DNA of 64,000 nt from Prorocentrum cordatum (lineage: Eukaryota): NCBI GenBank assembly GCA_963575745.1, contig CAUYUJ010000291.1:1-64000 (forward strand), given 5' to 3'. Positions 3,001-52,001 of this stretch are shown here, one piece after another (the first letter of the stretch is position 1; every line of letters begins with the position of its first letter). The position numbers and the translations under genes were made by a program. Below the pieces are notes generated by a model. The model was not told where the DNA came from. It saw only the letters and a program-made list of their open reading frames with translations, and ran no database searches.

Positions 3001-4690
3001 AGGCCTGGGGATGTCGTGGGGGGGTGCTGGCCAGGTGGGGGCCACGTGAGGGGTATGGGTCGATTTGGGAGAGAAATCGTAGGGTCGGGGATCCCAAGAA
3101 CAGAGCCCAGAGGCCTGGGGATGTCGTGGGGGGGGGGGGGCAGGTAAGGGCCAGGTGGCGGGGATGGGTCGTTTTTGGGCGAGAAATCGTCTTAGGGGGG
3201 GGGGTCCGGGGCAGGGTCCCAAGAAAACAAGAGCCCAGATGCCGCTGGGGATGTCCGGGGGGGGTGCTGCCGGTGGGGGCCCAGGTGGGGGGTATGGGTC
3301 GTGTTTAGGGAGAGAAATCGTAAGGTCGGGGTCCCAAGAAACAGAGCCCAGAGGCTGGGATGTCGTGGGGGGCACAGGTGATGGCCAGGTGTGGGCCAGG
3401 TAGGGGGGGTAGGGTGTTTTGGGGCGACAAATCGTAGGGTCCGGGGTCCCAAGAACAGAGCCCAGAGGCCTGGGGATGTCGTGGGGTGGTGGTGGCCAGG
3501 TGGGGGCGAGGTGGGGGGTATGGGTTGTTTTGTGGCGACAAATCGTAGGGTCCGGGGTTCCAAGAACAGAGCCCAGAGGCCTGGGGATGTCGTGGGGGGG
3601 TGGTGGCTAGGTGTGGGCCAGGTTGGGGGTATGGGTCGTTTTTGGCGCGAGAAAACGTAGGGTCGGGGGTCCCAAGAACAGAGCCCAGAGGCCTGGGGAT
3701 GTCGTGAGGAGGTGGTGGCCAGGTGGGGACCAGGCGGGGGGTATGGGTCGTTTTTGGGCGACAAATCGTAGGGCCCGGGGGTCCCAAGAACACAGCCCAG
3801 AGGCCTGGGGATGTCGTGGGGGGGTGGTGGCCAGGTGTGGGCCAGGTGGGGGGCAGGTGAGGGGCGTTGGTCGTTTTTGAGCGAGAAGTCGTGGGGTTGG
3901 GGGTCCCAAGAACAGAGCCCAGAGGCCTGGGGGGGAGGGGGGCGTTGGTCGTTTTTGGGCGAGAAATCGTGGGGTCGGGGGTCCCAAGAACAGAGCCCAG
4001 AGGCTTGGGGGTGTCGGGGCCAGGTGGGGGCCAGGTGGGGGGCGTTGGTCGTTATCGGGCGAGAAATCGTGGCGTCAAGGGTCCCAAGAACAGAGCTCAG
4101 AGGCCTGGGAGTGTCGGGGCCAGGTGGGGGCCAGGTGAGGGGGGGGGGGTGGCGTTGGTCGTTTTTGAGCGAGAACTCGTGGGGTCGGGGTTCCGAAGAA
4201 CAGAGCCCAGAGGCTTGGGAGTGTCGGGGCCAGGTTGGGCCAGGTGCGGGGCCTTGGTCGTTGTTGAGCGAGAAATCGTGGGGTCGGGGACCCCAAGAAC
4301 AGAGCCCAGAGGCTTGGGGGTGTCGGGGCCAGGTGGGAACCAGGTGGGGGGCGTTGGTCGTTTTTGGGCGAGAAATCGTGGGGTGGGGGAGTCCCAAGAA
4401 CAGAGCCCAGAGCCTTGGGGGTGTCGGGGCCAGGTGGAGGGGGGGGGGGACGTTGGTCGTTTTTGGGCGAGAAATCGTGGGGTCGGAGGTTCCAAGAACA
4501 GAGCCCAGAGGCTTGAGGGTGTCGGGGCCAGGTGGGGGCCGGGTGGGGGGAGGAGGGGGGCGTGGGTCGTGTTTGGGCGAGACATCGTGGGTTCGGGGGT
4601 CGGGGGCGTGGTGGGGAGTGTGGTTGGGGGTATCGGTCGGTTTTGGGCGAGAAGTGGTGTGGTGGGGGAAGGGGGGGCCCAAGAACAAAG
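1..4690. repeat. Tandem satellite, ~111-bp G-rich unit, shifting to a shorter ~90-100-bp variant after ~3850
   Basis: CCAAGAACAGAGCCCAGAGGCCTGGGGATGTCGTGGGG recurs about every 111 bp; two subtypes (GCGACAAATCGT / GCGAGAAATCGT). Confidence 0.97.
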
Positions 4691-4782
4691 GTTCCAAGGG
4701 AGAGAGCCAGGAGGGGGGTATCGGTCGGTGGCTCCTTGAAAGGAGAACCTCACGATGAATGGCTCTAGCACACACTCTCCCT

Positions 4783-4807
4783 CACACGCCTCTGGGGTCG
4801 GCGGATT
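4783..4807 (-). mobile_element. Hairpin-type terminus of a putative non-autonomous rolling-circle-like element closing the 1-4690 array
   Basis: CACACGCCTCTGGGGTCGGCGGATT resembles CACACGCCGACAGGGTCGGCGGATT at ~11492-11516, 43612-43636 (reverse complement) and 44890-44914. Confidence 0.55.
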
Positions 4808-15550: not shown

Positions 15551-18500
15551 TCAGCACGCCGCCCATGCCTTGACCGCCTGCTCCCACCTGCGAGCTGCAC
15601 CGCCCTCTCGGCGGAAGTAATCAGCAAGTCGCTCATGGGAGCCGGCAACATTCAAGCAGTTCTTCAGCACCATGGGCCCCCAAGACTGTCTCGGGCGGCC
15701 TCTTCTCCATTTCCCAAGAAGGCTCTTGAGAACCAGACCGCCCGGCTCAAACACCGAGCTTCTGACTGGATCTTCGTCTGGTCTTCTCGCCAAATGGCCC
15801 ATGTACAACATCTGTCTACGCGCAAGACTATGGCTCAGAGGCGTCTGTTGGCTGATCTGCAGAACTGCACGGTTCGACACCCGACTGATGTACGACGGAG
15901 AGACTCTGCAAATACGTCTGAGACAATAATTCTGGAACCCGTCGAGCCGTCTTCGCTCGGCCTGGTTAAGACACGCAGTGAATAATACATACGTGAGTTT
16001 GGAAACAACGCAAGCATTAAATATACGTAGTTTCTGTCTCCTACTCAAAGTCGAATGCGACCATATTCTTGCAAGCACCTTGAAGTCACTTCTGGCCGCC
16101 CCAATTCTCCGACTCAGTTCTGTGCCTATGCGCCCGTCCGAAGCAAGAGACGTCCCGAGATAAGTTAATGATTGCTTGGCTGGGATGGGGACCTCGTTGC
16201 GTCCCAAAATATCAGCTTCGGTCCTTACTTTCATAAGTTCCAACTTGCCCCAATTGAACTGCAGCCCGCACTGGCCCCCGCACTCCTCAATGCAGCGCAT
16301 CAGCTCTTGAACGAGGGCTGGGTCGGAGTCTATGAGCAACGTGTCGTCCGCGTACACGAGCTCCCTCGCAAACTGGTTTTCAGGTATCAGTCCGGCACGA
16401 CTCTGCTGAAGCAGCGCGTGCGCGTCCGTGAGAAGCGTCGTCATCACAATGGTGAACAGAAAAGGGGACAGCGGACAGCCTTGGCATATGCCGTACCTCT
16501 GCTGATGGATGCTGGACGTGGCCCCGAAGTCCCTCACGACGAACTTGCGCTCGCTGTAAATCGACACGACGACGTCCACGAAAACTTCTGGGCAACCAAA
16601 TCTCCGCAAAGACCTGGCGAGCGCGTCCGGCGAGACCGAGTCGAATGCCTTGGCCCAGTCGAGTGCCAGGAACAAGCGACTTGCATCTCTTGTTGACCAT
16701 GTGTCGTCCAGCACCCGGCGGGCTAGGAACACTGCGTCTGCCGTGCCCCGCCCGGAGCGGAACCCGAATTGGGTTCGCCAGATGCGGTCTTCGGCCCCCG
16801 CCTGCTTCAGCCTCTGGAGCAGGATGGTTGCGAACAATTTGTAGCCGATGGGCGAGATACTGATGGGGCGGTAGTTCTCGCATTCTGCAGGGTCGCCCTT
16901 CTTGAACAGCATCGACACCCTCGCATGCCTCCAAGCTTCTGGGATCTTACCTTGTCTCCAAACGTCGGTGTAGAATTTTGCCAGATAGCTCGGGAGACCT
17001 CCCGCGTCGCTCGCCGCTGCTTTCCAGAATTCGGGTGGCACCCCGTCAAGGCCAGAAGCGCGTCCTCGCTTCAATTTCGCAGCTGCGGCCTTCACCTCCC
17101 CCACTGTGATATCACCCATGGAGATGGGCAGGTCGTTGTCGGCAATCCGTGCAGCAACTGGCGGTGCCACTGACGTGGGTCTGACTGCCCACTGCACCCT
17201 CTCGAGGTAGTCGGCCAGAGTCTCAGCACGCTGGTCCGTCTCCACAATGCCCTTGTTGACGTCACGAAGCCTGCCCTGTCTGCGGACAGGGCCTTTCCGG
17301 AGCCTCCTAATCTGATTCCAATCAGCGGATTCCGTGACCGATTCGATCCAAGCGGCCTTGTCCCTGGCAACCGAAGCGCGGATTTTCTTCGACAGGCGCT
17401 TCTCCTCGTCAGTGTCGCCCTGCCTTCTGGCGCTCCCACGGCGCTCGATCAGCCCCAGCGTTCCGGCGCTCGTCCACGGCCTTGTGGTCCGCCTCGGAAG
17501 GAATGGCAACGTGCGTTCGGCAGCGTGATGAAAACCGTCCACGATACGACTCCAACCAAGATCGACATCCTCGCCTCCAGCTGCTGTGTCCTCGAAGCCC
17601 TCCAAAGCATTCAACATGTTCACGTTGAAAAAGCAAGCGGCGAGTGGGTCGGAGAGGGCTGTGACATCAAGGCGTGGACTCTGACTCGCAGGCGCCGTCT
17701 TCTCAACTGACATACGGACGCACGCAGTCAACAAGAAATGATGGGTCGACAACGGCACGTCGTGCCTAGCAGCCACGCCAGTGATGTCCTGGAGAAAAGT
17801 CCTCTCGCAGAGTACGAAATCGATCTGCGAGTGCGTCGAGGATCCAATTTGTAGCCCGGCAGGCGTACCCACGTTGTAGTTAGTGACAAGGTTGTGATCC
17901 GGCACGTCAAAAAATGTGTTTGCAACGCACATGTTCAGATTCTCGCACATCTCAACCATGAGGTGCCGGTTGGCGTCTTCCTTGCACGTCTGGTGGGGGT
18001 GTTTGAAAATATAGGGCCCCACCGCGTCACTCTCTCCATCGAGTTGGCCATACAACTTTGCATTCATGTCTCCTAACACAAGCTTGGGTCCATGAGCGGA
18101 TCTTGTGGAAACGAATTCTGACAAGCTCGTGAAGAAGTCAAACCGCCGCCGGAACTCGTAACCGCTGTGCGGCGCGTATGCAGAGAAAATAACAGCTTTA
18201 CCTCCTGGGATCCGAAGCTTGAGCGATGCCATGCGGTCCGTCGCCTGGCAAAATCCAACCACAGAGTGCCTGAAACTTGGATGTACGATGAAGCCCACTC
18301 CAGCCCGCTCGTCCTCTGGGTCTCCCGCACCGCCGGAAAGGACAACGAGGTAGCCGGAATCCGTGACGTACGTGATAGATTTTGATGTCCATGTCTCCTG
18401 TAGGCACAAGATCTTGATATGTAATTTATCCATGATGGATTCTAGCTCAATTTGTTTCGAGTCTGTATGCCCTTCGATGTTCCAAGATGCAATGTTGAAT

Positions 18501-18607
18501 TCGTCAGCCGTGGCAGGGCGTAAACGACCACCCCGAGCCGCAGAAAGTGACAACTTGGCTTGGCCAGCTGGATGTCCACATACTGCAGGTGAAACGTCAT
18601 TGCTCAC
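15551..18607 (-). CDS. LINE ORF2: APE-type endonuclease plus reverse transcriptase (1018 aa from a GTG)
   Basis: EN motifs IASWNIEG, LCLQETW, GVGFIV, SAYAP, LGDMNA, QIDFV; RT motifs NYRPIS, QFGFR, LDWAKAFDSV, QGCPLSP, YADD, YLG; RTE-type C-terminus YMGHLAR...RGRPRQSW. Confidence 0.97.
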   Translation of the reverse strand: MSNDVSPAVCGHPAGQAKLSLSAARGGRLRPATADEFNIASWNIEGHTDSKQIELESIMDKLHIKILCLQETWTSKSITYVTDSGYLVVLSGGAGDPEDERAGVGFIVHPSFRHSVVGFCQATDRMASLKLRIPGGKAVIFSAYAPHSGYEFRRRFDFFTSLSEFVSTRSAHGPKLVLGDMNAKLYGQLDGESDAVGPYIFKHPHQTCKEDANRHLMVEMCENLNMCVANTFFDVPDHNLVTNYNVGTPAGLQIGSSTHSQIDFVLCERTFLQDITGVAARHDVPLSTHHFLLTACVRMSVEKTAPASQSPRLDVTALSDPLAACFFNVNMLNALEGFEDTAAGGEDVDLGWSRIVDGFHHAAERTLPFLPRRTTRPWTSAGTLGLIERRGSARRQGDTDEEKRLSKKIRASVARDKAAWIESVTESADWNQIRRLRKGPVRRQGRLRDVNKGIVETDQRAETLADYLERVQWAVRPTSVAPPVAARIADNDLPISMGDITVGEVKAAAAKLKRGRASGLDGVPPEFWKAAASDAGGLPSYLAKFYTDVWRQGKIPEAWRHARVSMLFKKGDPAECENYRPISISPIGYKLFATILLQRLKQAGAEDRIWRTQFGFRSGRGTADAVFLARRVLDDTWSTRDASRLFLALDWAKAFDSVSPDALARSLRRFGCPEVFVDVVVSIYSERKFVVRDFGATSSIHQQRYGICQGCPLSPFLFTIVMTTLLTDAHALLQQSRAGLIPENQFARELVYADDTLLIDSDPALVQELMRCIEECGGQCGLQFNWGKLELMKVRTEADILGRNEVPIPAKQSLTYLGTSLASDGRIGTELSRRIGAARSDFKVLARIWSHSTLSRRQKLRIFNACVVSKLTYVLFTACLNQAERRRLDGFQNYCLRRICRVSPSYISRVSNRAVLQISQQTPLSHSLARRQMLYMGHLARRPDEDPVRSSVFEPGGLVLKSLLGKWRRGRPRQSWGPMVLKNCLNVAGSHERLADYFRREGGAARRWEQAVKAWAAC

Positions 18608-18622
18608 GCACAGTTGGCGCCC

Positions 18623-36959: not shown

Positions 36960-37630
36960 GGGGTCAACAGTAATTATTCTTCACAAGCGAGAAGTCAACA
37001 ACAACAACAACAGAAGCAACAACAGCAACAACGACAGCAGCAAAGACTACAGTCACAGCAACAAAACAGCCACGACAACGACGAGAACAACAACAACAAC
37101 AGCAACAACAACAACAACAACAACAGCAGCAGCAGCAGCAGCAGCAACAGAAACAACGACAATCATTTTTACGTCTGTTCGCTCTTACCTGCTCGTGTGC
37201 CTTTCAACACGTATATCCCAAACCCTCGATGCCCTCCTTCTTCGTCTTCGATCGTAACTCCTTGAGGGCGCAGCTTCCCTACCTGCCGCGCGGCGCTGGC
37301 GCAGCCCCGACAACAGGGGAAGAGAGGGCGGATGGAAAGGTGGAGGGAGAAGGATGGAACGCGGGAGAGAGTAGCAGGAGGGGGGCCAAGAGCAGAAAGC
37401 ACGCGGCAGAACCACGCGGGCCAAGAAGGCCCCTTTGGGCGCGCTCAGGGCCTCTGGGCTGTGTCCGAGAGCCTCGGTGGGCAGGGGAAGAGAGGGCGCA
37501 TGGAAGGAAGGGGCGAGGGGGGCCTGGAAGTAGATGGAGTACGAGAGAGAGAGAGAGAGAGAGAGAGTGGCAGGAGGAGGGGGGCCAGGAGCAGAAGGCA
37601 CGCGGCAGAACCGCGCGGGCCAGTGAGGCC
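36960..37630 (+). repeat. Dispersed copy of the unit tandemly repeated at 50150-53230
   Basis: (CAA)n followed by TGTTCGCTCTTACCTGCTCG...CGTATATCCCAAAC...CGTCTTCGATCG. Confidence 0.8.
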
Positions 37631-39881
37631 CCTCTGGGCGCGCCTGGGGCCTTTTTGGGGCCGTGTCCGAGGAGCCCCGGTGGGCAGCGTGGCCGAGGAC
37701 CCGTGCGGGCGCGCCGAGGGCCTCCGTGGGGTTGCGTCCCGGGGGCCTCCGTGAGCAGCGAGTCGGGAGCCCCTGTGGTGCGGGGGCCCTTTCTGGCCAG
37801 GAGGAGGAGGAGGAGGAGGAGGAGGAGGAGGAGGAGGAGGAGGAGGAGTGCAAGCCCTCGCGTCATATCTGACATCCTATCCCTCCCATCCCTTACCATG
37901 GCGTAGATCCCCTCTCTACTCGCACAGTCGGATGTCGAGCAGGGCAATGATCCCGAAAGGGTACGCGATGCATTGTAGAGCACGGCATGGCATGGCGTAG
38001 AAGAGCACCGCAAAGCGTAGTATCAACCTAGCATTGCATTGCATGCCGTGGCATGGCACGGGAGAAATGACGCCAGCGCTGCAGCGGGAGCACGAGTCGA
38101 AACGAGCGGAAACGCGGAAATGAGGCCAGCGCTGCAGCGAGAGCACGATTCGGAACGAGCGGAAGCACGGAAATGAGGCCACCGCTGCAGCGGGAGCACG
38201 ATTCGGAACGAGCGGGGCCCGAAAATGAGGCCGGCGCCTCAGCAAGAGCAGCATTTTGAAAAAGTGCAGGCGAAAACCCATTTCCGGGGAAACCTGTGTG
38301 TAAAAATACAGTACGCGGGGGGGGGTCGAGCACTTTCAAATCGTCATCAGGGAAAGAGGGAGAGTAGTATACATATTGAGTAATTGTAGAGGAGGAGGAG
38401 GAGGAGGAGGAGGAGGAGGAGGAGGAGGAGGAGGAGGAGGAGGAGGAAGGGGGAGGAGGAGGAGGAGGAGGAGGAGGAGGAGGAGGAGAGGAGGGAGGAG
38501 GGGGAGGAGGAGGGGGAGGAGGGGAGAGGTGGCATCTGGGAGCAGATTGCGAGAGCGCATCGGCCCGGGGAGGCGGGCCGCCGCCGCCGCTGCTGAGCTG
38601 CAAAGGGGGCCTCGAGCGAGAGCGCCGTTCCCAAATTCGGGGGGTTCCCTGGCCAGGGGATCTCGAAGTACGGGGGCCACTGCACTCGTGGCCGGGCCTG
38701 CGCCAACTGATCTGGATCACGAGAAAGTCTAGCGAGAGCGCCGCCCCGGAGTTCGAGGGCCTCTCTGGCCAGGGGCTTTCGGGATACATCTTGAGAAGCA
38801 TCGAGCGAGAACCGTTGTCCCCGCGTCTGGGCCTCAGCCAACCTGCTTGAAGTACGAGAGAGTCACGAGCGAGAGCGTCGTTCTTGAGTTTGGGGGCCTC
38901 TCTGGCCTGGGCCTCTGGGAGTACTGTCCTCGCGACACGTCAAAGCGAAACTCAGAAGACGGCGAGCGTCGGGCCCGACAAGTTAGTTACGAAAGACGAC
39001 GAGGCCGCACCGGGCGAAGTTAGTTAGCGAGAAAGCGAAAGCGCCGAGAGGACGCAAGGCTGAAGTTAGGACCTCCGCGTGGTAGCAGCATGGTCCGTTC
39101 GTGCATTCCACGTCCTGATCTATCACGCTGGCAGAGCAGCGCGATGTCACGCGCACCAAAAAAAACACCAGGGAGTGCTGCCACAAAGCGGAATCACATG
39201 CGCATGATAACCAGGATGAGCGCGCGATTCAATTGCGAATGCGATTCAGACTGCAATTCCGAAAACGGACGCGACATACCAAGTTATATTGCCAAAGGAC
39301 AACCTGAGATACTGGAATTGGCATTGCCCATATGATTTCGTTTTTGTGCGAATCCTGTGAGCCAACACAGATGTTGTCATATTCGCGCAACTATTTTGTG
39401 TTTTTTTGTTTCTGAATATTTTGCGTTGGTAATCGTGGTCGTATTCCCCGCTACGTGTATTGCCTGATGAAAACCAGTACTATTGCTTTTTTTCACCGCA
39501 GTTTGTTTATTGCACGAATGTTCACGACGTTGCGCATATCCGCATGAATATGGGCATCGTTGCGTACGGCACGTTACCGTCATAACGCAGATTCCATTTA
39601 ATAGTAATACTGGATGCGGGTATGACACCATATTGGAATATTATGATGTTTTTGTTTAAACGTGAATGAAACGTAATAACAACATAATGTATACCGTGAG
39701 TTGGGTTGATGTCTGGTTGTCCTTATTGTTTGTTTCGTAATGTTATCGGTCGCGCTACTACCGCTATCAATGCAAATGCTTGGGCTCGTGCTCATTCTCG
39801 CCTTCAGGCCCAAGGAAGCGTCGCATTCCAGCTGGTGACCCTGATTTTCCCTTGCCACGGTTCCGACGTACCTTTAGAAGC

Positions 39882-42800
39882 ATGTCGGCCTCTTCCTCGG
39901 GCGCTGCTCGCCGCAGGGCGATTGCAGCCATGTTCGGGGAACCTCCTGGCGCCACCCCCGAGAAGAAGCAGAAGGTGTTGGGCGTTGTCTCGCTGACCCC
40001 TGAGCAAAAAAGGATCAAAGATATCAAGGAGGGCAGGGGGCACATCCTGATTTTTAAACGTTTACCATGCGAACATATACGTGCGCAGCATTTGTTTTAC
40101 ATGGGGCGAAGCATCCTTATAAAAAGGGACACAATTGGGAACATCAGAACGAAGCCCGCCCGCCCCCGCCCCCCAAGGGCGTCGACGTTTTCAAGCGGCA
40201 GGCCGACGCGACAGCCGAGGCCCAGCGACAGCTCGCCGAGGAGTGGGGCCTCGAGTGGCCCAGGCCGCAGCCAACGGGGCCACCGCGCAAGGGGGGGCCG
40301 ATCCCCAGAGCCCAAAAATGGCAGGATAGTCTTTACCAGTGGCACGCGGGAGTTGTGAAGGGCGAGCTCCCCAAGCCCTCGGCGCCCCCGCCGCTGCTGT
40401 TCCCGTCGGACTGGGGCCATAAGAAATGCCCCGCGTGGGCGTACCAGGCGAGGGCGACGACCCCCGACAGAGACCCCCAGGCCACTCCGAAAGCGCAGAA
40501 AGGGGAAACCCAAGACGATCTGACGCCCGAGAACGGCCCGCAGGGCACTCCGAAGGCGGAGGGCGGGGACACCCAGGGCGTGGTGAACGACGAGTGCGCG
40601 AAGCAGCCCGAGAAGAAGCGGAGTTATCATTTGTACCCGCCCGAGGTGGTTGATTTCTATTTCGGTTTCGAAAAGGACATGGGGGGGGCCCGCTCGAAAG
40701 TTGTCGACTTCGTCAAGAGTCACTACCCCTCCCTGTTCCCGAAGACCTTCTGTGAAAGCCGAGTTCGCGCCTGGGAAAAGACGCGCCGTAGTCCTGACAG
40801 CGGGAGCGCTGCTGCTGGGCGGGGATGGCGTTTGGGCCAGACTGTCTTGCCAGTCGGCCATTTGGCATTTATCGGCTCCCTCATCGTATCGCAGTACAAC
40901 GCCGGAATTCCCATGACCGCGCGGCTCCTCGTTCCCCTCGTGGCAGGGGCATTGGTGGCGAAGGGGCTCGGTGACAAGGTGGTCTCGAAGCAAATGCGGC
41001 GGGCACTCGCACAATGCATCAGCAAGCTTGTTTGGGCATGCATGTGTGAACGCATGCGTGTATAAATGTCTGCACAGCACGCGAGATCTTACATGTACGT
41101 ACTTACTTGCATGCATGTGGCCCGTTCGTTTGTATGTGTATGCTTGCCCACCGGCATGTACGCGCTGCTGTATAACAGTGCACGTTCTGTGTTTTCGTTG
41201 AGGGGGAAGAAGGAAGCGGACACCGAACGTGAACAACACGCACACACGTAGCAGGGTTGTCCTACGAACGTGGCCGAAACTTGGCGCGAGCGCGCATAGA
41301 GAGAAAAGTGCCACCCTGGGCAGTCGCAAAAACAACCCGGAGAAACAAACGTGCACCGACCTAGGCGTTTACTAAAAGTCCCCGTGGCCGCGGAGGACAA
41401 GGAGGGGGAGGAGGAACGGGAGGAAGAAGGAAAGCCAACTCGCGTATGGTACGACTTCGGCCTGAAACGTATCCGGACCGCGGCTGGATGGGAAGTTCCG
41501 CAGAAGGTTCTGGCGGAGTGCCCAAACAGCCACATCGATAAATCCAACATAGCAAGAGAAAAGCGAGAGGGGGGAGGAGGAACAGGAGGAGGAAAGAGAA
41601 AAGGAGGGAGGAGCCGACAGACGCGCAAGAGTGAGACAGTACATGATCAACCTAAGGTTGGAAGCATGCGTATGTGTAGCGTGTGTGTTCTGTGTCTGCT
41701 GGCGTGCATGTGCGCGTATCTGGATATGTGCACTGATGTATGGTGTGTCTACGTGTGCGCAAAATGCACCAGTAAGCTCTTTTCACTGCGCCCTGTCGTC
41801 AGGGCTATGCTTCGACGTAGGTCCGATACAACATTCAAAACTCGTCTGGAAACGCATCGCACTAGTGTTCGCACAGTGTTCGGTCCAGACTCTTACCCTA
41901 ACCAGCCAATCGCCCTTCTAAGCGCCACTCCGCTCAGTCTTATCATCCACCCTTCGGCTCTCAGATGCCGAACGCCTTCTCCAGGATGTTTTGGGCATTC
42001 TTGTCGAGACTACCCACGGCCGCCTGCGCATCTTCACCGCCCTCCACATCGTGGTCAGCCTCGCTTGCTGGCTCCATCTCCGCTGCCTCCTCGGCCTCCC
42101 ACGCTGCGCCCAATCCAAGCTCCTTGTCAGCTGCTTCCGCTGCGGCTTTCGCCTCAGCAGCTTTCCTTTCTTGGTAGCGCAATGTTTTGTAAGGGTTGCA
42201 CACCAAGCACCCTCCTCCGGACCAGCGGCACTTGGGGCAACCGTACAAGTAGTTGCCACTTCCGTTGCAGCCGTCAGGCTGCGGCGCCTTCGATTTCGCC
42301 TTCCCCTTCGCTTTGCCCTTCCCCTTCGCCTTCTCCTCCTCTTTGGCCTTCTCTTCCCCTTTCGTCAACCCTTCATCCTCTTCATCATCCTTCGCCTCAT
42401 CATCCTCCTTCGCCTTATCCTCCCCCTTCGCTTTCTCATCCCCTTTCGCCTTCCTTCCATCCTCCTCCTTCGCCCCGTCCACTTCCTTCGCCTTCTCCTC
42501 CTCCTCCTCCTCCTCTTTCGCCTTGTCCTCCGCCTTCACCTTCGCCTTCTCCTCCTCCTCCTCCTTCGCCTTCTCCTCCTCCTCCTCCTTTGCGTTCTCC
42601 TCCTCGTTCGCGTTCGCCTTCGCTTCCTCCTCGACGTCCTTCTCCTCGCCCTGCGCCTTTTCCTCGTCTGCCTGCGCATCGGGGGACTTGCTGATCTTCG
42701 TCAGGGTTCCCCCGAATAGCTCCTTTTTGGCCTCCAGGGCTTCCGCCTCCTGGAAGAGCGCCCCCTGCTGCGGGCCCCAAGCCTGCGCCAAGCCTGACTC

Positions 42801-44840
42801 GGCCCATCCGCGGCACAGCTCCTGCCCAGAAGGACGACGAGGAAAACGAGGAGGACGACGAGGAAAACGAGGGAATGGGAGATGGAGGAGGGGGAGGAGA
42901 AAAGCGAGGAAAACAGGGACGAGGGGCAGGAATACCCACTTTCGATCGATTGTTTTGTTGATGTGCGCGCGTTTCGTTTCGCTCGAGGGCCTGGCGGGTG
43001 AAGGGCCACAAACTCGCAGAGGGGGGCCGGGTGATTCGGGAAAGATGCGCCTCCTTGTCTTTCTTAGAGATCTCCTCGAAGGCAGTAGACAGAAAATGGC
43101 AGAAAGGAGTCTTCAAGGCAACGAGGTTCAGGTCGATCGTCACAGAGGTGCTCGGGACACTCTGGTCAGCAAGCTTCAAGGCAACTTGACCCGCGAACCA
43201 CTCCGTGGCCGCAGTGCTGATGAGGTTCTTGAACTGGGCGTTGACGGCAACGTCCAGAGGTTGCAAGAAAGGGGTGTAGTTTGCCGGAACGAACAGCAGG
43301 ATGAGTTGCGGAAGCGTCTGCTTCACCCAATCCAGAAATCCAGCGTCACGGTGCGAAGAGTAAACGTCGAGGATGAGCACCATGCGTTGCCCAAGTGGCA
43401 AGCCGTTCTTCTCCACCATAAGCGTGTAGTATGTCTCCATGAGATGGGTGACGAATTCCTTCATGGTTTGCACTGTGCTCCAGTGGCTCTCAGAATGGGC
43501 GTGGAAGATATGTTTTTCGAACTGCTTCTGCGTCTGGGAGGTCGGCTCGCACTGCTTCGTTTTCCCTCCCCAGATCACTTGGCACGGCCTGATGAGCTCG
43601 CCTGCCGCTGAAATCCGCCGACCCTGTCGGCGTGTGGAATGGGCTGTTCCGTTCGTCGTCGTCGCCGTCGCCGCCAAGCGAGCCAGCCAAATCGACGCGC
43701 CCTAACCCAACCAAAGCAAAATTGAGGAACGTCGTCATCGTCGTCGTCGTAGTCGTCGTTCAGGGTCGGCGGCGCTCGCCGTAAGGCCTTTCGAATCGTC
43801 GGTATGACCGTGTATTGCCGCTTGTCACCAGCCCCATGGAAGACCGTCTGCTGCCCCTTCCCGCTGGGTGCCCAACCCCGAGGCTTCAAAGGGAGTAAGA
43901 AGACACCTGTTTCGTCCATGTTCACCACAAGCTCTCGTGGGATGGAGTGGGAAACGACGCAATAGACCAGACGCAAGAGGAACATATGAGCTGTAGCCTT
44001 CAGGTCCACCTCGTTCGGTTGATGCTTCTTGGTGCGAGTCGGCCGCTTGTAGGACATCTTCAGAACTACTTTGCAGAATCGCTGCACCCACCTGTCCGTG
44101 ATGCTGACCTTCCCATCGTGGCCTTTCTTTTCGTTCCCTTTTGTTTCGGTCACCACCTGGGAGCGCATTTGCTAATCGACCGAGCGGCGGAGGAGGACGA
44201 GGAGGATGCACCGGAGGCGGGGAGGGGGATGTGTCAAAGCATGCGCTCTCAAGCGTGGGAAGAGCTCCGCGGGCGAAAGGGGCAGAGGATTTATTAACAT
44301 GCTCCGGCGCTGACGCCCAGAGCGGTCGCACAGCAAATACGCTCCCAGGTGGTGACCGAAACGAAAGGGAACGAAAAGAAAGGCCACGATGGGAAGGTCA
44401 GCATCACGGACAGGTGGGTGCAGCGATTATGCAAAGTAGTTCTGAAGATGTCCTACAAGCGGCCGACTCGCACCAAGAAGCATCAACCGAACGAGGTGGA
44501 CCTGAAGGCTACAGCTCATCTGTTCCTCTTGCGTCTGGTCTATTGCGTCGTTTCCCACTCCATCCCACGAGAGCTTGTGGTGAACATGGACGAAACAGGT
44601 GTCTTCTTACTCCCTTTGAAGCCTCGGGGTTGGGCACCCAGCGGGAAGGGGCAGCAGACGGTCTTCCACGGGGCTGGTGACAAGCGGCAATACACGGTCA
44701 TACCGACGATTCGAAAGGCCTTACGGCGAGCGCCGCAGACCCTGAATGACGACGATTACGACGACGACGATGACGATGAGGACGTTGCTCCGTTTCGCTT
44801 TGGCTGGGTTGGTGCATTTCGATTTGGCTCACTCGCTTGG

Positions 44841-44873
<33 letters not shown>

Positions 44874-46526
44874 ACGGATCAGCCCATTCCACACGCCGAC
44901 AGGGTCGGCGGATTTCAGCGGCAGGCGAGCTCATCAGGCCGTGCCAAGTGATCTGGGGAGGGAAAACGAAGCAGTGCGAGCCGACCTCCCAGACGCAGAA
45001 GCAGTTCGAAAAACATATCTTCCATGCCCATTCTGAGAGCCACTGGAGCACAGTGCAAACCATGAAGGAATTCGTCACCCATCTCATGGAGACATACTAC
45101 ACGCCTATGGTGGAGAAGAACGGCTTGCCACTTGGGCAACGCATGGTGCTCATCCTCGACGTCTACTCTTCGCACCGTGACGCTGGATTTCTGGACTGGG
45201 TGAAGCAGACGTTTCCGCAACTCATCCTGCTGTTCGTTCCGGCAAACTACACCCCTTTCTTGCAACCTCTGGACGTTGCCGTCAACGCCCAGTTCAAGAA
45301 CCTCATCAGCACTGCGGCCACGGAGTGGTTCGCGGGTCAAGTTGCCTTGAAGCTTGCTGACCAGAGTGTCCCGAGCACCTCTGTGACGATCGACCTGAAC
45401 CTCGTTGCCTTGAAGACTCCCTTCTGCCATTTTCTGTCTACTGCCTTCGAGGAGATCTCTAAGAAAGACAAGGAAGCGCATCTTTCCCGAATCACCCGGC
45501 CCCCCTCTGCGAGTTTGTGGCCCTTCACCCGCCAGGCCCTCGAGCGAAACGAAACGCGCACACATCAACAAAACAATCGATCGAAAGTGGGTATTCCTGC
45601 CCCTCGTCCCTGTTTTCCTCGCTGTCCTCCTCCCCCTCCTCCATCTCCCACTCCCTCGTTTTCCTCGTCGTCCTCCTCGTTTTCCTCGTCGTCCTTCTGG
45701 GCAGGAGCTGTGCCGCGGATGGGCCGAGTCAGGCTTGGCGCAGGCTTGGGGCCCGCAGCAGGGGGCGCTCTTCCAGGAGGCGGAAGCCCTGGAGGCCAAA
45801 AAGGAGCTATTCGGGGGAACCCTGACGAAGATCAGCAAGTCCCCCGATGCGCAGGCAGACGAGGAAAAGGCGCAGGGTGAGGAGAAGGACGTCGAGGAGG
45901 AAGCGAAGGCGAACGCGAACGAGGAGGAGAACGCAAAGGAGGAGGAGGAGGAGGAGAAGGCGAAGGCGGAGCAGACGGCGAAGAAGGAGGCGGAGAAGGC
46001 GAAACAAATTGACGAGACGATGGAGGAGGATGGAGGGAAGGCGAAAGGGGATGATAAAGCGAAGGGAGAGGTTAAGGCGAAGGAGGATAAGGCGAAGGAT
46101 GATGAAGAGGATGAGGGGATGGCGAAAGGGGAAAAGAAGGCCAAAGAGGAGGAGAAGGCGAATGGGAAGGACAAAGCGAAGGAGAAGGCGAAATCCAAGG
46201 CGCTGCAGCCTGACGGCTGCAAAGGAGGTGGCAATTACTTGTACGGTTGCCCCAAGTGCCGCTGGTCCGGAGGAGGGTGCTTGGTGTGCAACCCTTACAA
46301 AACATTGCGCTACCAAGAGAGGAAAGCTGCTGAGGCGAAAGCCGCAGCGGAAGCAGCTGACAAGGAACTTGGACTGGGCGCAGCGTGGGAGGCCGAGGAG
46401 GCAGCGGAAATGGAGCCAGCAGGCGAGGCAAACCACGAAGTGGAGGGCGGTGAAGATGCGCAGGCGGCCATGGGTAGTCTCGACAAGAGTGCTCAACACA
46501 TTCTGGAGAAGGCGTTCGGCATCTGA
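39882..46526 (+). CDS. pogo-superfamily DD37D transposase, copy A (~896 aa); exons 39882-40028, 40178-40978, 44349-44711, 44915-45472, 45705-46526
   Basis: HTH-like RSYHLYPPE..ESRVRAW; CENP-B-type HTH GIPMTARLL..|..ITDRWVQR..KMSYKRPT; catalytic NMDETG, LILDVYSSH, QPLDVAVN (37 residues between D2 and D3); E/K-rich tail with GCPKCRWSGGGCLVC. Three joins are phase 0 (GA-AG, GT-AG, GA-AG); the 44712-44914 insert must also be removed. Confidence 0.78.
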
Positions 46527-48611
46527 GAGCCGAAAGGTTGATGACAAGGCTGAGCGGAGTGGCGCTTAGTTGCAAATTAGGGTCAGAGTCTGGACCGAAC
46601 ACTGTGCGAGCACTAGTGCGATGCGTTTTCAGACGAGTTTTGAATCTTGTATCGGACCTACGTCGAAGCATAGCCCTGGCGACAGGGCGCAGTGAAAAGA
46701 GCTCACTGGTGCATTTGCGTACACGTAGACATACCATACACACATCAGTGCACATATCCAGATACGCACACAGGCACAACATTAGACACATAACACACAC
46801 GCTACACCTACTCATGCTGCCAACATTAGGCTTATCATGTTCAGTATCACTCGTGCGTGCCTGTCTGCTCCTGTCCCCTCTTCTCTTCCCTCCTTATGTT
46901 CCTCCTCCCCTCCCACTTCTTTTCTCTTTCTTGTGTTGGATTTATCGTTGTGGCCGCTTGGACAGTCCGCCAAAACCTTCTGCGGAACTTCCCATCCAGC
47001 CGCGGGCGGGAGACGTTTCATCAGGCCGGATTCGTATCATACGCCATTTGTTTTCCTACTTCTTCCCGTTCCTCCTCCTCCTCCTCCTCCTTGTCCTCCT
47101 CCTCCGCCTCCTCCCCCTTGTCCCCCTCCTTCCTCTCCACGTCCACCGGGATTTGTTTGGAAACGCCCAGGGCGGCACATTTTTGTTGTTCCGGGTCGTT
47201 TTTGCGAGTGCCCAGGGTGACACGTTTCTCTCTGTGCGCAGAGTTTCGGCCACGTTCGTAGGACAACCCTACTACTTGTGCGTGGTGTTCACGTTCGGTG
47301 TCCGTTTCTTCCTTCTCCGTCAACAAACAGCACGGAACGCGCTCCGTCATTCAGTAGTGCGTACATGCGGGGTGGCGCGCGTGCACATACAAGCGAACGG
47401 GCCACATGCATGCAAGTAATACGTACATGTCGGGTCTCGCGTGCTGCGCCCACAATTCTACACTGCATGCCCAAACGAGTTTGCTGATGCATTGCGCGGG
47501 CGCCCTCCGCATTTGCTTCGAGACCACCTTGTCCCCGAGCCCCTTCGCCACCAATGCCCCTGCCACGAGGGGAACGAGGGGCCGCGCGGTCATGGGAATT
47601 CCGGCGTTGTACTGCGATACGATGAGGGAGCCGATGAATGCCAAATGGCCGACTGGCAAGACAGTCTGGCCCAAACGCCATCCCTGCCCAGCAGCAGCGC
47701 TCCCGTTGTCAGGACGATGGCGCGTCTTTTCCCAGGCGCGAACCCGGCTTTCACAGAAGGTCTTCGGGAACAGGGAGGGGTAGTGTTTCTTGACGAAGTC
47801 GACAACTTTCGAGCGGGCCCCCCCCATGTCCTTCTCGAAACCGAAATAGAAATCAACCACCTCGGGCGGGTACAAATGATAACTCCGCTTCTTCTCGGGC
47901 TGCTTCGCGCACTCGTCGTTCACCACGCCCTGGGTGTCCCCGTCCTCCGCCTTCGGAGTGCCCCGCGGGCCTTTCTCGGGCGTCAGATCGTCTTGGATTT
48001 CCCCGTTCTGCGCCTTCGGAGTGGCCTGTGGGTCTTTGTCGGGGGTCGTCGCCCTCGCCTGGTACGCCCACGCTGGGCACTTCTTATGGTCCCAGTCCGA
48101 CGGGAACAGCAGCGGCGGTGGCGCCGAGGGCTTGGGGAGCTCGCCCTTCACAACTCCCGCGTGCCACTGGTAAAGACTATCCTGCCATTTTTGGGCTCTG
48201 GGGATCGGCCCCCCCTTGCGCGGTGGCCCCGTTGGCTGCGGCCTGGGCCACTCGAGGCCCCACTCCTCGGCGAGCTGTCGCTGGGCCTCGGCTGTCGCGT
48301 CGGCCTGCCGCTTGAAAGCGTCGACATCCTCAGGGGTGGGGGCTGCGTTTTCATGTTCCCTAGCGTGCCCCCCCTCTTGTAGGGATGCACCTTCCTAGGT
48401 AAAGTACGCGTTGCACGCGTGCAGTGTCGGATGTAACAACAAATTGTATTGCGTGTCCCCCGCCCTCCTCGAGATCCTTGGCTCTTTTCTCCTCAGGGGT
48501 CAGTGAGATACAGTTCAACACCTTCTGCTTTTTCTCGGGGGTGGCGCCAGGAGGCTCCCCGAACATGGCTGCGAGCGCCTTGCGACGAACGGCGTAGGAG
48601 GAAACCGACAT
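41961..48611 (-). CDS. pogo-superfamily DD37D transposase, copy B; exons 48611-48468, 48328-47528, 44156-43794, 43611-43054, 42821-41961
   Basis: Same motifs and splice positions as copy A; exon 2 is 801 nt in both; no stops or frameshifts in the predicted exons. Confidence 0.78.
43612..43793 (+). mobile_element. 182-bp hairpin/asymmetric-IR insertion in transposase copy B
   Basis: AATC duplicated at the ends; CCGCCGACCCTG pairs with CAGGGTCGGCGG; removal restores TVIPTI-SAAGEL. Confidence 0.8.
44712..44914 (-). mobile_element. 203-bp orthologous insertion in transposase copy A
   Basis: GATT at 44708-44711 and 44911-44914; hairpin CGCCGAC-AGG-GTCGGCG. Confidence 0.8.
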
Positions 48612-48929
48612 GCTGTCGGCGGTCTGTTGGGGCCGTTGCAAAAAGGAATGCAGGTCCACCACATGGGATGCGACGAGCTCTTGAGCCTGGAGCTCGCGAG
48701 CGTACCAACATTCTATCTCAATCGTGCGATACGCCGGTGTATCCAAGGTTCCCCAAACAATGCTTGCACTCAGGGTTTCTTATTTGTTTTCTAGGGGGGT
48801 GGGCCTGGGAGCGTAACTACCGGCTCTGTTGCCCCCGTCGCCGCTTCGTCGCCGCCTGTCGTTTGGGCGTGGGTGCTGGTCTGGCGGTGCGCCGTCGCCG
48901 CCCCGTCGCTGCCTCTTCGCCGCCCGAGA

Positions 48930-49262
48930 TGTACCACGTAGATTGCACAACATAGATTGCACCACATAGCTAACACCACAGATTGCACTACGTAGCTTGC
49001 ACCACATATATTGCACCATATGGACAGCATCGCAGCTATTGCACCACATGTTTTGCACCACGCAGCTCCCACCACAAACTTTACACCACATAGGTTGCGC
49101 CACATCAATATGGGCGCATACATCGCACCACGCATCTTGCACCACATAGGTTGCGCTACATATATTGAACCACGTACATCGCACCACATGTGTCGCACAA
49201 CCTTGATGGCACCACGTAGATTGCACCACGTAGCTCGCATCTCATATATTGCACGACATAGG
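48930..49262. repeat. Degenerate TTGCACCACATAG minisatellite
   Basis: Direct reading. Confidence 0.85.
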
Positions 49263-50149
49263 TTTCCCCACGGGCATTGCTAGGAACCAGAGAACCAGTA
49301 TTGAAGGCCCACGCTGGGCAACAGCAGCCAGCATAATATCATATGGTTTGGGTAAAGATGCTTCGGATAAAAAAATCTAATGCAATACGAACTTGACGGA
49401 GCATGAGAATGTGGTTGGACTGTTGCCGCATATTACATACTACGTGCCTTCCGTACCGAAACCATTGAATCCCAGCGGGCGCGCGATTCATAATTAGGTG
49501 AAGGCACGGCCGCAAGGGACAAGTTCAGGCGACGGCGGGAATGACTAAGCGAAGCGCAGAATAATAGTTAATTGTTAGGAAAGCGAAAGCGAAAGCGAAG
49601 CTCCCCCGAAAAAGTTAATAGTTAAGAAAGCGAAATCGAAAGCGAACCGCTCGGAAAAAGTTGATAGTTTCGCTTTGAGGTGTCGCGGGGACAGTACATC
49701 TTGACGAAGTATCGAACGAGAGTCCTTGTCGTCGTAGTTGAGCGTCCGCCAACTTGATTGAATCACGCGAAGGTCTCGACCGAGTGCGTCGTTCCTGAGT
49801 TCGGGGGCCTTCCTGGCCAGGGTCTCTCGGAGTAAACCGTGGGGAAGTATCGAGCAGGAACCCTTGTCGTCGTGGCTGGGCTTCCGCCAACTGGATTGAA
49901 TTGCGAGGAACTCTCTAGCGAAAACGCCGTTCCTGAATTCGGGGGCCTCTCTGGCCAGGAGGTATCGGGGTCAGTTGCGAGGAGGCATCGAGCGTGAGCC
50001 GTTGTCGTCGTAGCCGGGCTTCTGCGGGCGCACATTTACCATCGAGCCCGCGCTCGAGCGGGAGCTTTTTTTTCATAGGAGTTCCAGCAGGCGTCGGGGC
50101 GAGAGCGCGCAGAACAATTTCCGGATATCAGCGCTGATCATTTTTAATC

Positions 50150-52001
50150 AACGACAACGACGACGACGACAACAATCACATTAATATTGTTCGCTCCTAT
50201 CTGCTCGCAGCCCACTCAACGCGTATATTCCAAAACCCTCGATGCCCGCCCTCTCCGTCTTCGATCATGCCCCCTTGGGGTGTATATCTTTCTTACCTGC
50301 AACGTGTATTTCGCGCCGCCCCTAAGGCAGGGGAAGAGAGGGCGCATGGAAGGAAGGGGCAAGGGGGAGGGAAGTGGATGGAGCACGAGAGAGTAGCAGG
50401 AGGAGGGCTAGGAGCAGAAAGCACGCGGCAGAACCATGCGGGCAGATCGGGCGGGCAGACCCTAGCCGGCGGGTCGGGAAGGCGGGCCCAAGCGGACAGG
50501 TCAAGCAGGCGGGTTGCAAATAAATCGTCCGGAACTCCACAGCAAAAGCGCGATGCTTGAATGTCGAGGGCGCGGCGTCTGAATAAATGGCGAGGAAGCC
50601 CCGCGGGAGAGCGCGATTCCCGTGTCTATTTTGAAGACGTCCCGCGCGAGAGCGTGATTTGGGAGAGAATTGTGAGGGAAGGCAGGGGCCGTTGTTGTGG
50701 AAGTTCGGGGGCCAACAACGGAGTTTGGTCACCCTTCGCCTTCCCATGTAAAAAACTGGGTGCGAGCACCGGGGGGAAGCACTTAAATTGAGACACTACA
50801 GTGGTTACTGGGCAGGGGGGATCAACAGTAGTTATTTACTTGACATGAGAACCAAGCAGCAAAAGCAACAACAGCAATAGCAGCAGCAGCATAAACAACG
50901 ACGACGACAACAACAGCAGCAACAACAACAACGACGACGACGACAACAGCAACGCCGACGACGGCACACATTTTACGTCTGTTCGCTCTGACCTGCTCGC
51001 GTGCCATTCAACACGTATATCCCAAACACTATGTACTTGTCGTTTTTGTCTTCGATCGTATCCTCTCTTGGGCGTGCATCTTCCTTGCCTGCCGCGCGTA
51101 GCTGGCGCGGCTCTTAAAACAGGGGAAGGAGGGGGGAATGAAGAGACAAGGGGGAAGGAGAAGGATGGAACGCGATAGAAATTCACAGGAGGAGGGTTTG
51201 GAACAGGAACACAACCGGCAGAACCAGCCTGGCGTGTCGGGCGGGCGGGGTCAATTGGGCAAGTCGCGCGGGCGGGCCCAGACGGCCAGGTCGAGCGGGC
51301 GGGTCGGTAAAGCGTCAACACATCATGGAGGAAAGGAATTTCGAGCGATAGCGCGATTCCCAAGTATATCGCAAGGAGATCCAAAGCGAGATCGTGATTC
51401 CTGAGTTTAAGGGGCACGGCGCCGCAATACATTCGGAGGAAAGAGAGAGAGAGCGTGATTCTTGGATAAACTATGAGGAAGTCCCGCGCGAGAGCGCGAA
51501 TTTAAAATGCACTGTGGCAGCATAAAGGCGGAGCCGCTGAGGTTGTAAACCGGAGTTTCGGGGCGCAGTTTGACGTCCGCAGATTCTCCCTGATAGGGAA
51601 CAGGGTGAGAGCCCAAGGAGGAACACTTCAATGGAAAAAGTACAAGTGTCACCGGGGGGCAGCAACAAGAAGAAGAAGAAGAAGAAGAACAACAACAACA
51701 ACAACAACAATAACAACGACAGTATCAGCGACAGCAACAACAACAGCAACAATAATTTTAGGACCGTTCGCCCTTATATGCTCGAGTGTCCAATAACGTG
51801 TATTTCCCAAACCCTCCATACCCGCCCTCTTCGTCTTCGATCGAACTTCATTCGGGGGGTATGCCTTTTTTCCCTGCAGGCCGGGCCCCGGCAAGCGGCG
51901 GGGCGGCCGCGGACCGTCGGCCTGGCCAGCGGCAGCGCTGATCGGCGGGGCGGCCGCGGACCGTCGACCCGACCCCAAGAGGGACGGACAGGGGACCGAC
52001 C

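Follow-up and report, generated by a model that had tools for sequence, protein, structure and literature searches.

The first 64,000 nucleotides (nt) of Prorocentrum cordatum contig CAUYUJ010000291.1, referred to here as the window, contain a DNA transposon of 10,771 bp (38924-49694) in which a transposase gene is laid out as two interlocked mirror copies on the arms of a palindrome. Within each arm, the part encoding the N-terminal region (N part, two exons) is convergent to the part encoding the C-terminal region (C part, three exons) of one transposase. The order along the window is thus N(+), C(-), C(+), N(-), as described in the original prediction, and all of its layout claims hold in the open reading frames (ORFs), the Pfam matches and the blastn alignments. 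When the N part of one arm is joined to the C part of the other across the centre of the palindrome, two open gene models of 911 and 920 amino acids are obtained. The best single reading of the locus is that a full transposase is produced when the old donor in one arm is spliced to the old acceptor in the opposite arm, a reading to which we give somewhat less than even weight. The parts of the two genes, with the evidence for them in parentheses, are as follows.

39882-40032, plus strand: N exon 1, left arm, with an ATG in both arms and homology to the N terminus of protein P0001; its 3' boundary is tentative, with a GC donor at 40033
40155-40978, plus strand: N exon 2, left arm, ending ...AKGLGDK before GT (phmmer, alignments); its 5' boundary is tentative
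40979-41041, plus strand: read-through tail of 21 codons after the donor, left arm, forming the first 63 nt of the long intron
41961-42818, minus strand: last C exon, left arm, with a K/E-rich stretch, a CxxC...CxxC motif and the stop codon (tblastn with protein P0045, query residues 427-471 and 520-546)
43051-43623, minus strand: DDE_1 core exon, left arm (Pfam DDE_1; tblastn with P0045, query residues 242-431)
43788-44156, minus strand: first C exon, left arm, with VVTETKG directly after CAG (sequence, tblastn, alignment)
44349-44717, plus strand: first C exon, right arm (sequence, tblastn, alignment, splice enumeration)
44903-45475, plus strand: DDE_1 core exon, right arm (Pfam DDE_1, E 9.4e-08; tblastn)
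45708-46526, plus strand: last C exon with the stop codon, right arm (tblastn, gene model)
47465-47527, minus strand: read-through tail after the donor, right arm
47528-48342, minus strand: N exon 2, right arm, with a change of L to P in the conserved RLLVPL
48464-48611, minus strand: N exon 1, right arm (splice enumeration, gene model)

Comparison with relatives connects the two parts. In an exhaustive phmmer search, the left N half matched 43 proteins at E<=0.001, 22 at <=1e-10 and four at <=1e-30. Six relatives are colinear through the junction, namely P0005, P0011, P0031, P0052, P0039 (686 amino acids) and P0045 (629 amino acids), the last of which was retrieved with the first C exon as query. 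One colinear example reads ...GLGDK-ITLEPKALAQASSHDATLHF-SGRWV across the junction, and the join in the window, GLGDK/VVTETKGNEKKGHDGKVSIT-DRWV, has the same 20-residue spacing as P0011. The end of N and the start of C lie in adjacent columns of a 28-row alignment. In tblastn searches, P0045 tiles both arms through residues 7-122 (N), 134-245, 242-431, 427-471 and 520-546, and detects no third copy of the gene in the window. A profile for scoring the junction was built from the six colinear relatives alone, with the window excluded. With this profile, the plus-strand cross-arm join scores 315.9 bits and the mirror join 314.2 bits, each in one stretch, against 148.9 bits for N alone and 150.8 bits for the first C exon alone. 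In combination, the colinear relatives, the adjacent columns and the join scores show that the halves derive from a single ancestral gene, which was divided at an intron older than the locus, in agreement with the original prediction of two halves of one gene. A once-contiguous ORF reading ...DKVVSKQMRSQVVTETK... was also considered and rejected, as relatives are without those nine residues and the join scores lower with extra residues (306.4 bits with five, 300.6 bits with 21).

The colinear relatives (the P0045 cluster and P0039) share the order of regions from the N domain to the C-terminal Cys motif, with an identity of 49-57% to P0045 across most exons and of 22-32% to P0039. Unlike the locus, they are single uninterrupted ORFs, found on contigs of about 2.9-3.6 kb from a marine metagenome and other public assemblies. 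Other relatives are broken at the junction. In P0001, P0002, P0003, P0015, P0016 and P0017, the likeness ends right after ...DK, and the next residue is V (GTN) in four of the six (P0001, P0002, P0015 and P0016). On the C side, P0044 and P0050 carry unrelated residues ending ...PAQ directly before VTTALHD. This pattern fits an old phase-0 GT...AG intron at the junction in predictions made from genomic contigs. The homologue search found no longer proteins matching the N half, and the two metagenome loci, on contigs of 1.6-1.8 kb, both end before the junction.

The original prediction placed a phase-0 GT-AG join between 40978 and 44349, with its mirror between 47528 and 44156. The splice letters are present in both arms, reading GACAAG/GTGGTC at 40978/40979 and CTCCCAG/GTGGTG at 44348/44349, with identical mirror sites. 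The predicted intron lengths were recovered on recomputation (3370 and 3371 nt), and ORFs, Pfam and tblastn bear out that each long intron contains the antisense catalytic exons of the twin gene. The N ORFs themselves extend over 40058-41065 on the plus strand and 47351-48394 on the minus strand. For the short introns, donor and acceptor pairs were enumerated for an open frame and for match to relatives, with the boundaries of intron 1 remaining the least certain. For each of three short frame-changing interruptions, a GC-AG intron shared by the two arms is a workable reading. GA-AG introns, which would have suggested a dinoflagellate-like host, had also been considered here and were dropped, since the GC-AG options explain all three. 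The plus-strand model (left N with right C) then comprises 2736 nt and 911 amino acids, and the minus-strand model (right N with left C) 2763 nt and 920 amino acids, both with an ATG start and no internal stops. The two proteins are identical at 847 residues and end at the same stop, so that the cross-arm joins do complete each ORF as predicted. Both arms retain the full set of eight splice dinucleotides for each gene: the long intron is GT-AG and the three short introns are GC-AG. Three exact pieces from sequencing run X3 cross exon-intron borders unspliced, and no conclusion is drawn from them.

The palindrome that holds these parts is old and diverged, and comprises the following regions.

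39802-44173: left palindrome arm (blastn, identity profile, local alignment)
44174-44331: unpaired palindrome centre, 158 nt (blastn arm ends, repeat search)
44332-48692: right palindrome arm (blastn, identity profile, local alignment)
41042-41960: left spacer between the N and C parts, also the 3' flank of the left C part
46527-47464: right spacer

When the two halves of the region were compared by blastn, the inner arms (41394-44173 and 47091-44332) paired at 91.8% identity over 2812 columns, and the outer arms (39879-41409 and 48614-47121) at 87.1% over 1539 columns. The innermost repeat pair (43730-44182 and 44323-44775) lies 140 nt apart, matching the 140-bp spacer of the original prediction. 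Homology between the arms extends about 80 nt 5' of both ATGs (39802-39872 and 48692-48621), with a local alignment score of 24 against a maximum of 15 among 100 shuffles. Measured per 100 columns, the identity between arms is a mosaic, from 93-100% in N exon 2 to 40-85% in the spacer. Most of the C part reaches 97-100%; lower values occur at a trinucleotide repeat within coding sequence (55%) and in an intron that carries a microsatellite (75-87%). The arms are separated by 23 indels, 13 of which fall between the left spacer (41060-41960) and its counterpart, along with 130 mismatches in 879 ungapped columns. Within the spacer, a 140-nt island (41762-41901 and 46577-46716) is 96% alike between arms, compared with 74-85% around it. 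It lies about 60 nt past the stop of the C part, holds a small stem (GCCCTG-ACGA-CAGGGC) and may be a 3'-end signal.

Palindromes are a known class of artefact in long-read libraries, so that an assembly artefact was considered, either as a chimera from folded-back long reads or as two paralogues joined in error. None of the pieces listed for runs X1-X4 spans the palindrome centre, and the left N-to-spacer junction is likewise unspanned by these short contigs; no weight is given to the gaps in their depth over the left N part. However, a fold-back artefact would give near-identical arms, and here they differ by 8-13% overall, with the indels and the mosaic of 40-100% identity described above, around a centre of 158 unique nt. 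The outer ends carry different subterminal sequences and yet have matching terminal inverted repeats (TIRs) and a TA duplication within one satellite unit. In addition, contigs of run X1, differing by about 1-3%, span the passage from the right N end to the spacer (47242-47748), as well as the right ATG (48296-48662). The palindrome is therefore biological, and an assembly artefact is highly improbable.

The limits of the transposon lie outside the palindrome, and consist of the following features.

38922-38923: TA target-site duplication, left; the left flank ends GGGAGTA
38924-38952, plus strand: left TIR, 29 nt, pairing with 49666-49694 on the minus strand
38953-39801: left subterminal region, unlike the right one (likeness in the local alignment is confined to the ~80 nt next to the ATG)
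48693-49665: right subterminal region, carrying a 14-nt tandem array at 48933-49261
49666-49694, minus strand: right TIR, 27 of 29 positions identical to the left TIR
49695-49696: TA target-site duplication, right; the 138-nt satellite unit resumes in the right flank, which starts TACATCTTGACG

The TIRs were found from a 32-nt inverted match outside the arms, and at up to three mismatches they are the only two matches in the window, where none is expected from 100 shuffles. A 138-nt satellite flanks the element on both sides (38582-38923 and 49695-50025), providing both the insertion target and an empty-site comparison. The intact satellite unit reads GGGATACATCTTG, with a single TA at the insertion point, and a nearby uninterrupted unit reads GGGATACATCTTGAG, again with one TA only. 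As the TIRs are flanked by TA and the satellite unit is continuous across the insertion, 38924-49694 is one DNA transposon of the pogo/DDE_1 kind, 10,771 bp in length, with a TA duplication. A nested insertion by way of an internal TIR copy in the spacer was considered, and the search of the window found no such copy. The palindromic unit of the original prediction thus stands; what it missed are the TIR and TA boundaries, the fit of the short introns to GC-AG, and the coding-like character of the 21 codons after the donor.

Between the left and right subterminal regions, blastn-short finds nothing else above chance. The tandem array of the right subterminal part has the consensus ACCACATAGATTGC in 23.6 copies, is confined to that side, and gives 13 matches to the 14-nt motif where 0.39 are expected; it may represent transposase binding sites or just a minisatellite. 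One X1 contig joins 39305 to 49396, both inside the element, and so skips 10,090 nt. This joint, from a single contig with a short side of 30 letters, fits a 681-bp internal-deletion copy in a related strain and hints weakly at mobility of the family.

Pfam identifies DDE_1 (PF03184) in the ORFs of both arms, at 42436-43701 (minus strand) and 44780-45880 (plus strand), with E 9.8e-08 and 9.4e-08 and 32 bits against a cut-off of 22. This agrees with the DDE-type catalytic domain that had been predicted in the C halves, and the domain is also present in the relatives P0045 and P0039. The aspartates of NMDETG, LDVYS and QPLD do not differ between the arms, and all relatives that extend over those columns have them; we take them to be the catalytic acidic triad. 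The N ORFs have no Pfam match. Its catalytic domain, TA duplication and short TIRs place the element with the pogo/Tigger-type elements of the Tc1/mariner superfamily; the helix-turn-helix (HTH) units predicted N-terminal of the catalytic core would be a further likeness. It differs from them in its size (10.8 kb, compared with about 2-3.5 kb for the group) and in the four introns of each gene. Furthermore, its transposase gene is not colinear, with N and C convergent in each arm of an interlocked palindrome, and it includes a long N-terminal WGLxWPRP...KWxxxLYxW region and a C-terminal CxxC...CxxC motif, neither of which has a Pfam match. A sequence search of the PDB with the family profile gave no match, viral contigs had no match to the N or C part, and Rfam and tRNA scans of the window were also without a match.

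Under cross-arm splicing, we infer that transcription from the left N promoter would first cross the left C part, in antisense, and then the centre. The donor at 40978/40979 would then be joined to the right-arm acceptor at 44348/44349, with removal of 3370 nt, and removal of the three short GC-AG introns would give the 911-amino-acid transposase; the mirror gene on the minus strand would give the protein of 920 amino acids. If the long intron were retained, translation would continue through the 21 conserved codons and soon stop, at least in the left arm. Intron retention gives rise to repressors in other transposons, and by analogy the N-only product could be a regulator. Read-through RNA able to form a hairpin would be an unavoidable side product and may feed silencing, and gene conversion from arm to arm would have kept the exons alike since the layout arose.

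Whether the exons have been under constraint was assessed between the arms, using Nei-Gojobori estimates of synonymous (dS) and non-synonymous (dN) divergence for coding sequence and the Jukes-Cantor distance for non-coding sequence.

N exon 1: dS 0.42, dN 0.14
N exon 2: dS 0.05, dN 0.025
First C exon: dS 0.02, dN 0.007
DDE core exon: dS 0.03, dN 0.005
Last C exon: dS 0.086, dN 0.049
Non-coding distance: intron 1, 0.54; spacer, 0.165; intron 3, 0.12; intron 4, 0.022

The neutral model was the non-coding spectrum of the locus itself (112 transitions and 87 transversions), from which a synonymous share of 26.7% is expected. Between the arms, the exons carry 40 synonymous and 63 non-synonymous changes, a synonymous excess at P=0.0048, and none of these 103 changes creates a stop (P=0.018). 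All four exon indels are multiples of three, compared with eight of 19 elsewhere, a count that is biased by trinucleotide repeats. The constraint on the exons is real but moderate, with a dN/dS ratio (omega) of about 0.57.

A series of observations weighs against cross-arm splicing, starting with these data. Constraint is only moderate, and it could have been imported by gene conversion from other copies. Exon-limited gene conversion between the arms is evident from the very low dS of N exon 2 and the two DDE exons beside diverged flanks (0.05 and 0.02-0.03, compared with 0.17-0.54 in the spacer and intron 1), and therefore the intact ORFs of the two arms are not independent witnesses. In the right N copy, P replaces a residue that is L, I or M in all 13 relatives compared, and the left C copy has L where six of seven relatives have P. 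Including these, only four differences at conserved columns can be polarised: L to P in right N, F to L in right C, and, in left C, P to L and an aromatic residue to L. A ranking of the two genes by how well they are kept was dropped for this reason.

The same data bear on a competing explanation, in which the locus is a rearranged, non-functional pogo-like copy that arose by inversion and inverted duplication, or by serial template switching, at the intron. Cross-arm colinearity would then be a geometric by-product of making a palindrome from an inverted half-gene, and the ORFs would look intact through conversion between arms or from active copies elsewhere. Such a decayed copy is somewhat less likely than cross-arm splicing but a serious rival to it. 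In its favour are the conversion tracts, which also leave intron 4 just 2% diverged, the weak constraint, the damaging-looking changes at conserved columns in both genes, and the lack of any spliced N-C peptide of the lineage in word-index and exhaustive protein searches. On the other hand, decay does not readily account for the synonymous excess, the absence of stops and the in-frame exon indels. Nor does it account for exon 1, which is old (dS 0.42) and yet open in both arms with a dN of 0.14, for the eight splice dinucleotides kept per gene in both arms, or for the intact TIRs.

Further points against cross-arm splicing come from the long intron itself. The 21-codon tail at its start is open in the N frame in both arms and differs by five synonymous changes and one non-synonymous change, with one more synonymous change in run X1 among the differences listed, and it is also carried by the peptide P0014. 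An intron start should not change like coding sequence, and the tail therefore weighs against a constitutive intron. P0014 and P0051, the only near-identical public peptides found and labelled by EukProt as from a Pyramimonas sp. strain, both run from exon into adjoining intron: P0014 reads ...GLGDKVVSKQMRRAPAQCISKLAWAC, and P0051, which is 99% identical, reads ...TVIPTIRKALRRAPPTLNDDDYDD... EukProt sets of this type are mostly transcriptomes; if this one is, the peptides would represent RNAs unspliced at two introns, which also speaks for a decayed copy. The long intron exceeds the other introns 15- to 28-fold in length, and complementarity to the downstream exons covers about 2.2 kb of it. 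Because this intron carries in antisense the exons that follow it, and the inner arms are 92% paired, a hairpin exceeding 2 kb can form in the primary transcript; such complementarity would favour a hairpin over splicing. The splice sites date from the old intron, and finding them here does not tell the readings apart. A donor after the 21-codon tail, used with an upstream acceptor, was examined as a different route and rejected, as a frame-compatible pair exists only in the plus-strand gene and not in its mirror.

The folding of the transcript raises the alternative of a hairpin-RNA locus of the Mu killer type, in which read-through from antisense C into sense C would give long double-stranded RNA with a loop of about 158 nt. 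This RNA would be diced to small RNAs that silence the family, and the coding capacity would be incidental. The arms are suited to such a role, with 92% complementarity over 2.8 kb (41394-44173 and 44332-47091) and 97-100% across the DDE exons, and on either side an N promoter is directed inward. Inverted duplications generated by alternative transposition are reported to have started the silencing of Ac/Ds (10.1101/2020.01.07.897926). A silencing role, however, does not select for ORFs, in-frame indels or synonymous-biased change, and Mu killer is a partial gene copy, whereas every exon of the locus is complete in both arms. This reading is improbable, yet like the decayed copy it is a serious rival, and a hairpin role can coexist with either cross-arm splicing or a decayed copy.

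The halves might instead work without cis-splicing over the centre, as separate N-only and C-only proteins or by trans-splicing within an arm. The tail after the donor looks translated, and donor and acceptor are kept in both arms. In the left C part, an in-frame ATG (44166-44168, minus strand) is found four codons before VVTETKG; the right arm has ATA in its place. The two tails also diverge after 'WAC', with a stop eight codons on in the left arm and a frame of 43 codons in the right arm. According to a low-confidence model, the break falls inside a predicted three-helix unit, and each half would lack part of the DNA-binding domain. In Drosophila, mod(mdg4) is expressed by trans-splicing of opposite-strand transcripts, and trans-splicing of that kind is without support at this locus. 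On balance, separate function of the halves is quite improbable, marginally more so than a hairpin-RNA locus.

The original prediction further held that the join rebuilds the CENP-B-type HTH that precedes the catalytic domain, and this claim is not supported. Pfam finds no match to HTH_Tnp_Tc5 (PF03221) in ten ORFs of the window or in six relatives, two of them full-length and colinear; this too counts against cross-arm splicing, and it is a difference from pogo/Tigger as far as Pfam detects. The claim depends on a likeness of motifs, on a Protein Atlas lead whose best score is 0.76, and on a low-confidence fold. The latter is an AlphaFold2 model of P0045, made from the 28-row alignment, with a mean predicted local confidence (pLDDT) of 42 and helices at 80-95, 102-121 and 143-153. 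With the junction near residue 122, the N part in this model would end between helices 2 and 3 of the second predicted HTH. The helix pattern fits a split three-helix unit but proves nothing.

Cross-arm splicing remains the preferred reading in view of the exact junction, the open models and the constraint. It is more doubtful that the palindrome is a maintained, selected architecture of two interlocked mirror genes, switching between transposase, truncated regulator and hairpin RNA. The stronger statement of the original prediction, that the unit is functional only as a palindrome, is unproven.

With regard to the origin of the layout, the ancestral gene can be described as segment A (promoter, N and intron start) followed by segment B (intron end, C and 3' flank), and the present order is A-B'-centre-B-A', where a prime denotes the reverse complement. 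Segment B may have been inverted, with one break in the intron, followed by fold-back duplication of A-B'. Inversion of B would be needed first, because recombination between inverted copies in a head-to-head or tail-to-tail pair cannot give the layout. Alternatively, several template switches may have occurred in one event. Origin by inversion and fold-back duplication or by serial template switches is most likely, though this is proposed with low confidence. The 10-mer AGCAAATGCG occurs after the donor at 40989-40998 and again at 44164-44173 (minus strand), where it stands just before the left acceptor, innermost in the arm; its right-arm counterpart at 44332-44341 is AGCAAATACG. A further likeness of 17 nt (15 of 17 identical) is seen between 41042-41058 and 44229-44245 in the centre. 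In simple shuffles, these likenesses between post-donor and pre-acceptor sequence have P<0.002 and about 0.02-0.04, in a region of low complexity. They may be scars of the rearrangement or chance, and nothing is built on them here.

Several known systems resemble the locus in part. Mu killer of maize (PMC3440606) and the inverted duplications of Ac/Ds (10.1101/2020.01.07.897926) are inverted duplications of transposase-gene sequence inside or beside a transposon, with the potential to form long hairpin RNA. They are partial copies without a route to a full ORF, and they act as silencers. By contrast, the two halves of the present locus are complete and open, show some constraint and can be linked by a colinear splice path.

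Foldback-type or long-TIR transposons (FB, Galileo and Tc3-like elements) also have very long inverted arms between short true termini. Their arms, however, are non-coding repeats or simple extensions of the TIRs, and any transposase gene lies in the unique middle. Here the arms consist of the exons and introns of a DDE_1 gene, the middle is only 158 nt, and non-coding subrepeats do not make up the arms. Interleaved antisense gene pairs, and mod(mdg4) with its trans-splicing from opposite strands, have exons of one gene inside an intron of a gene on the opposite strand; unlike these, the genes here are mirror copies, and in the long intron of each the catalytic exons of the other, which are also paralogous to its own, lie in antisense. 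A search of the open-access literature found no description of a transposon with such an interlocked palindromic layout, and that on interleaved opposite-strand genes offered no closer case.

If the splice is used, the locus would represent a way to encode a protein that is undescribed in the literature searched, with a palindromic gene pair threaded through each other. One locus could then produce active transposase, a shortened DNA-binding protein and a hairpin RNA directed against itself, with the efficiency of splicing setting the balance among them, which would bear on the self-regulation of transposons and on how hosts start silencing. If the splice is not used, the locus is a clean, datable case of an intron break and inverted duplication reshaping a transposon for which the ends, target site and relatives are known.

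Elsewhere in the window, a direct repeat of about 790 nt lies on both sides of the locus (50229-51859 and ~37000-37650), adjoined by CAA/CAG and GAG microsatellites. Positions 1-4800 show a strong GC skew (+0.44 to +0.49), and the repeat there carries ORFs on both strands that reach 1101 amino acids; this stretch is a long tandem repeat rather than a gene. At 15554-18622, on the minus strand, an uninterrupted ORF of 1023 amino acids matches Exo_endo_phos (E 1.6e-07) and RVT_1 (E 6.7e-34); this is a retrotransposon resembling long interspersed nuclear elements, and it may be intact.

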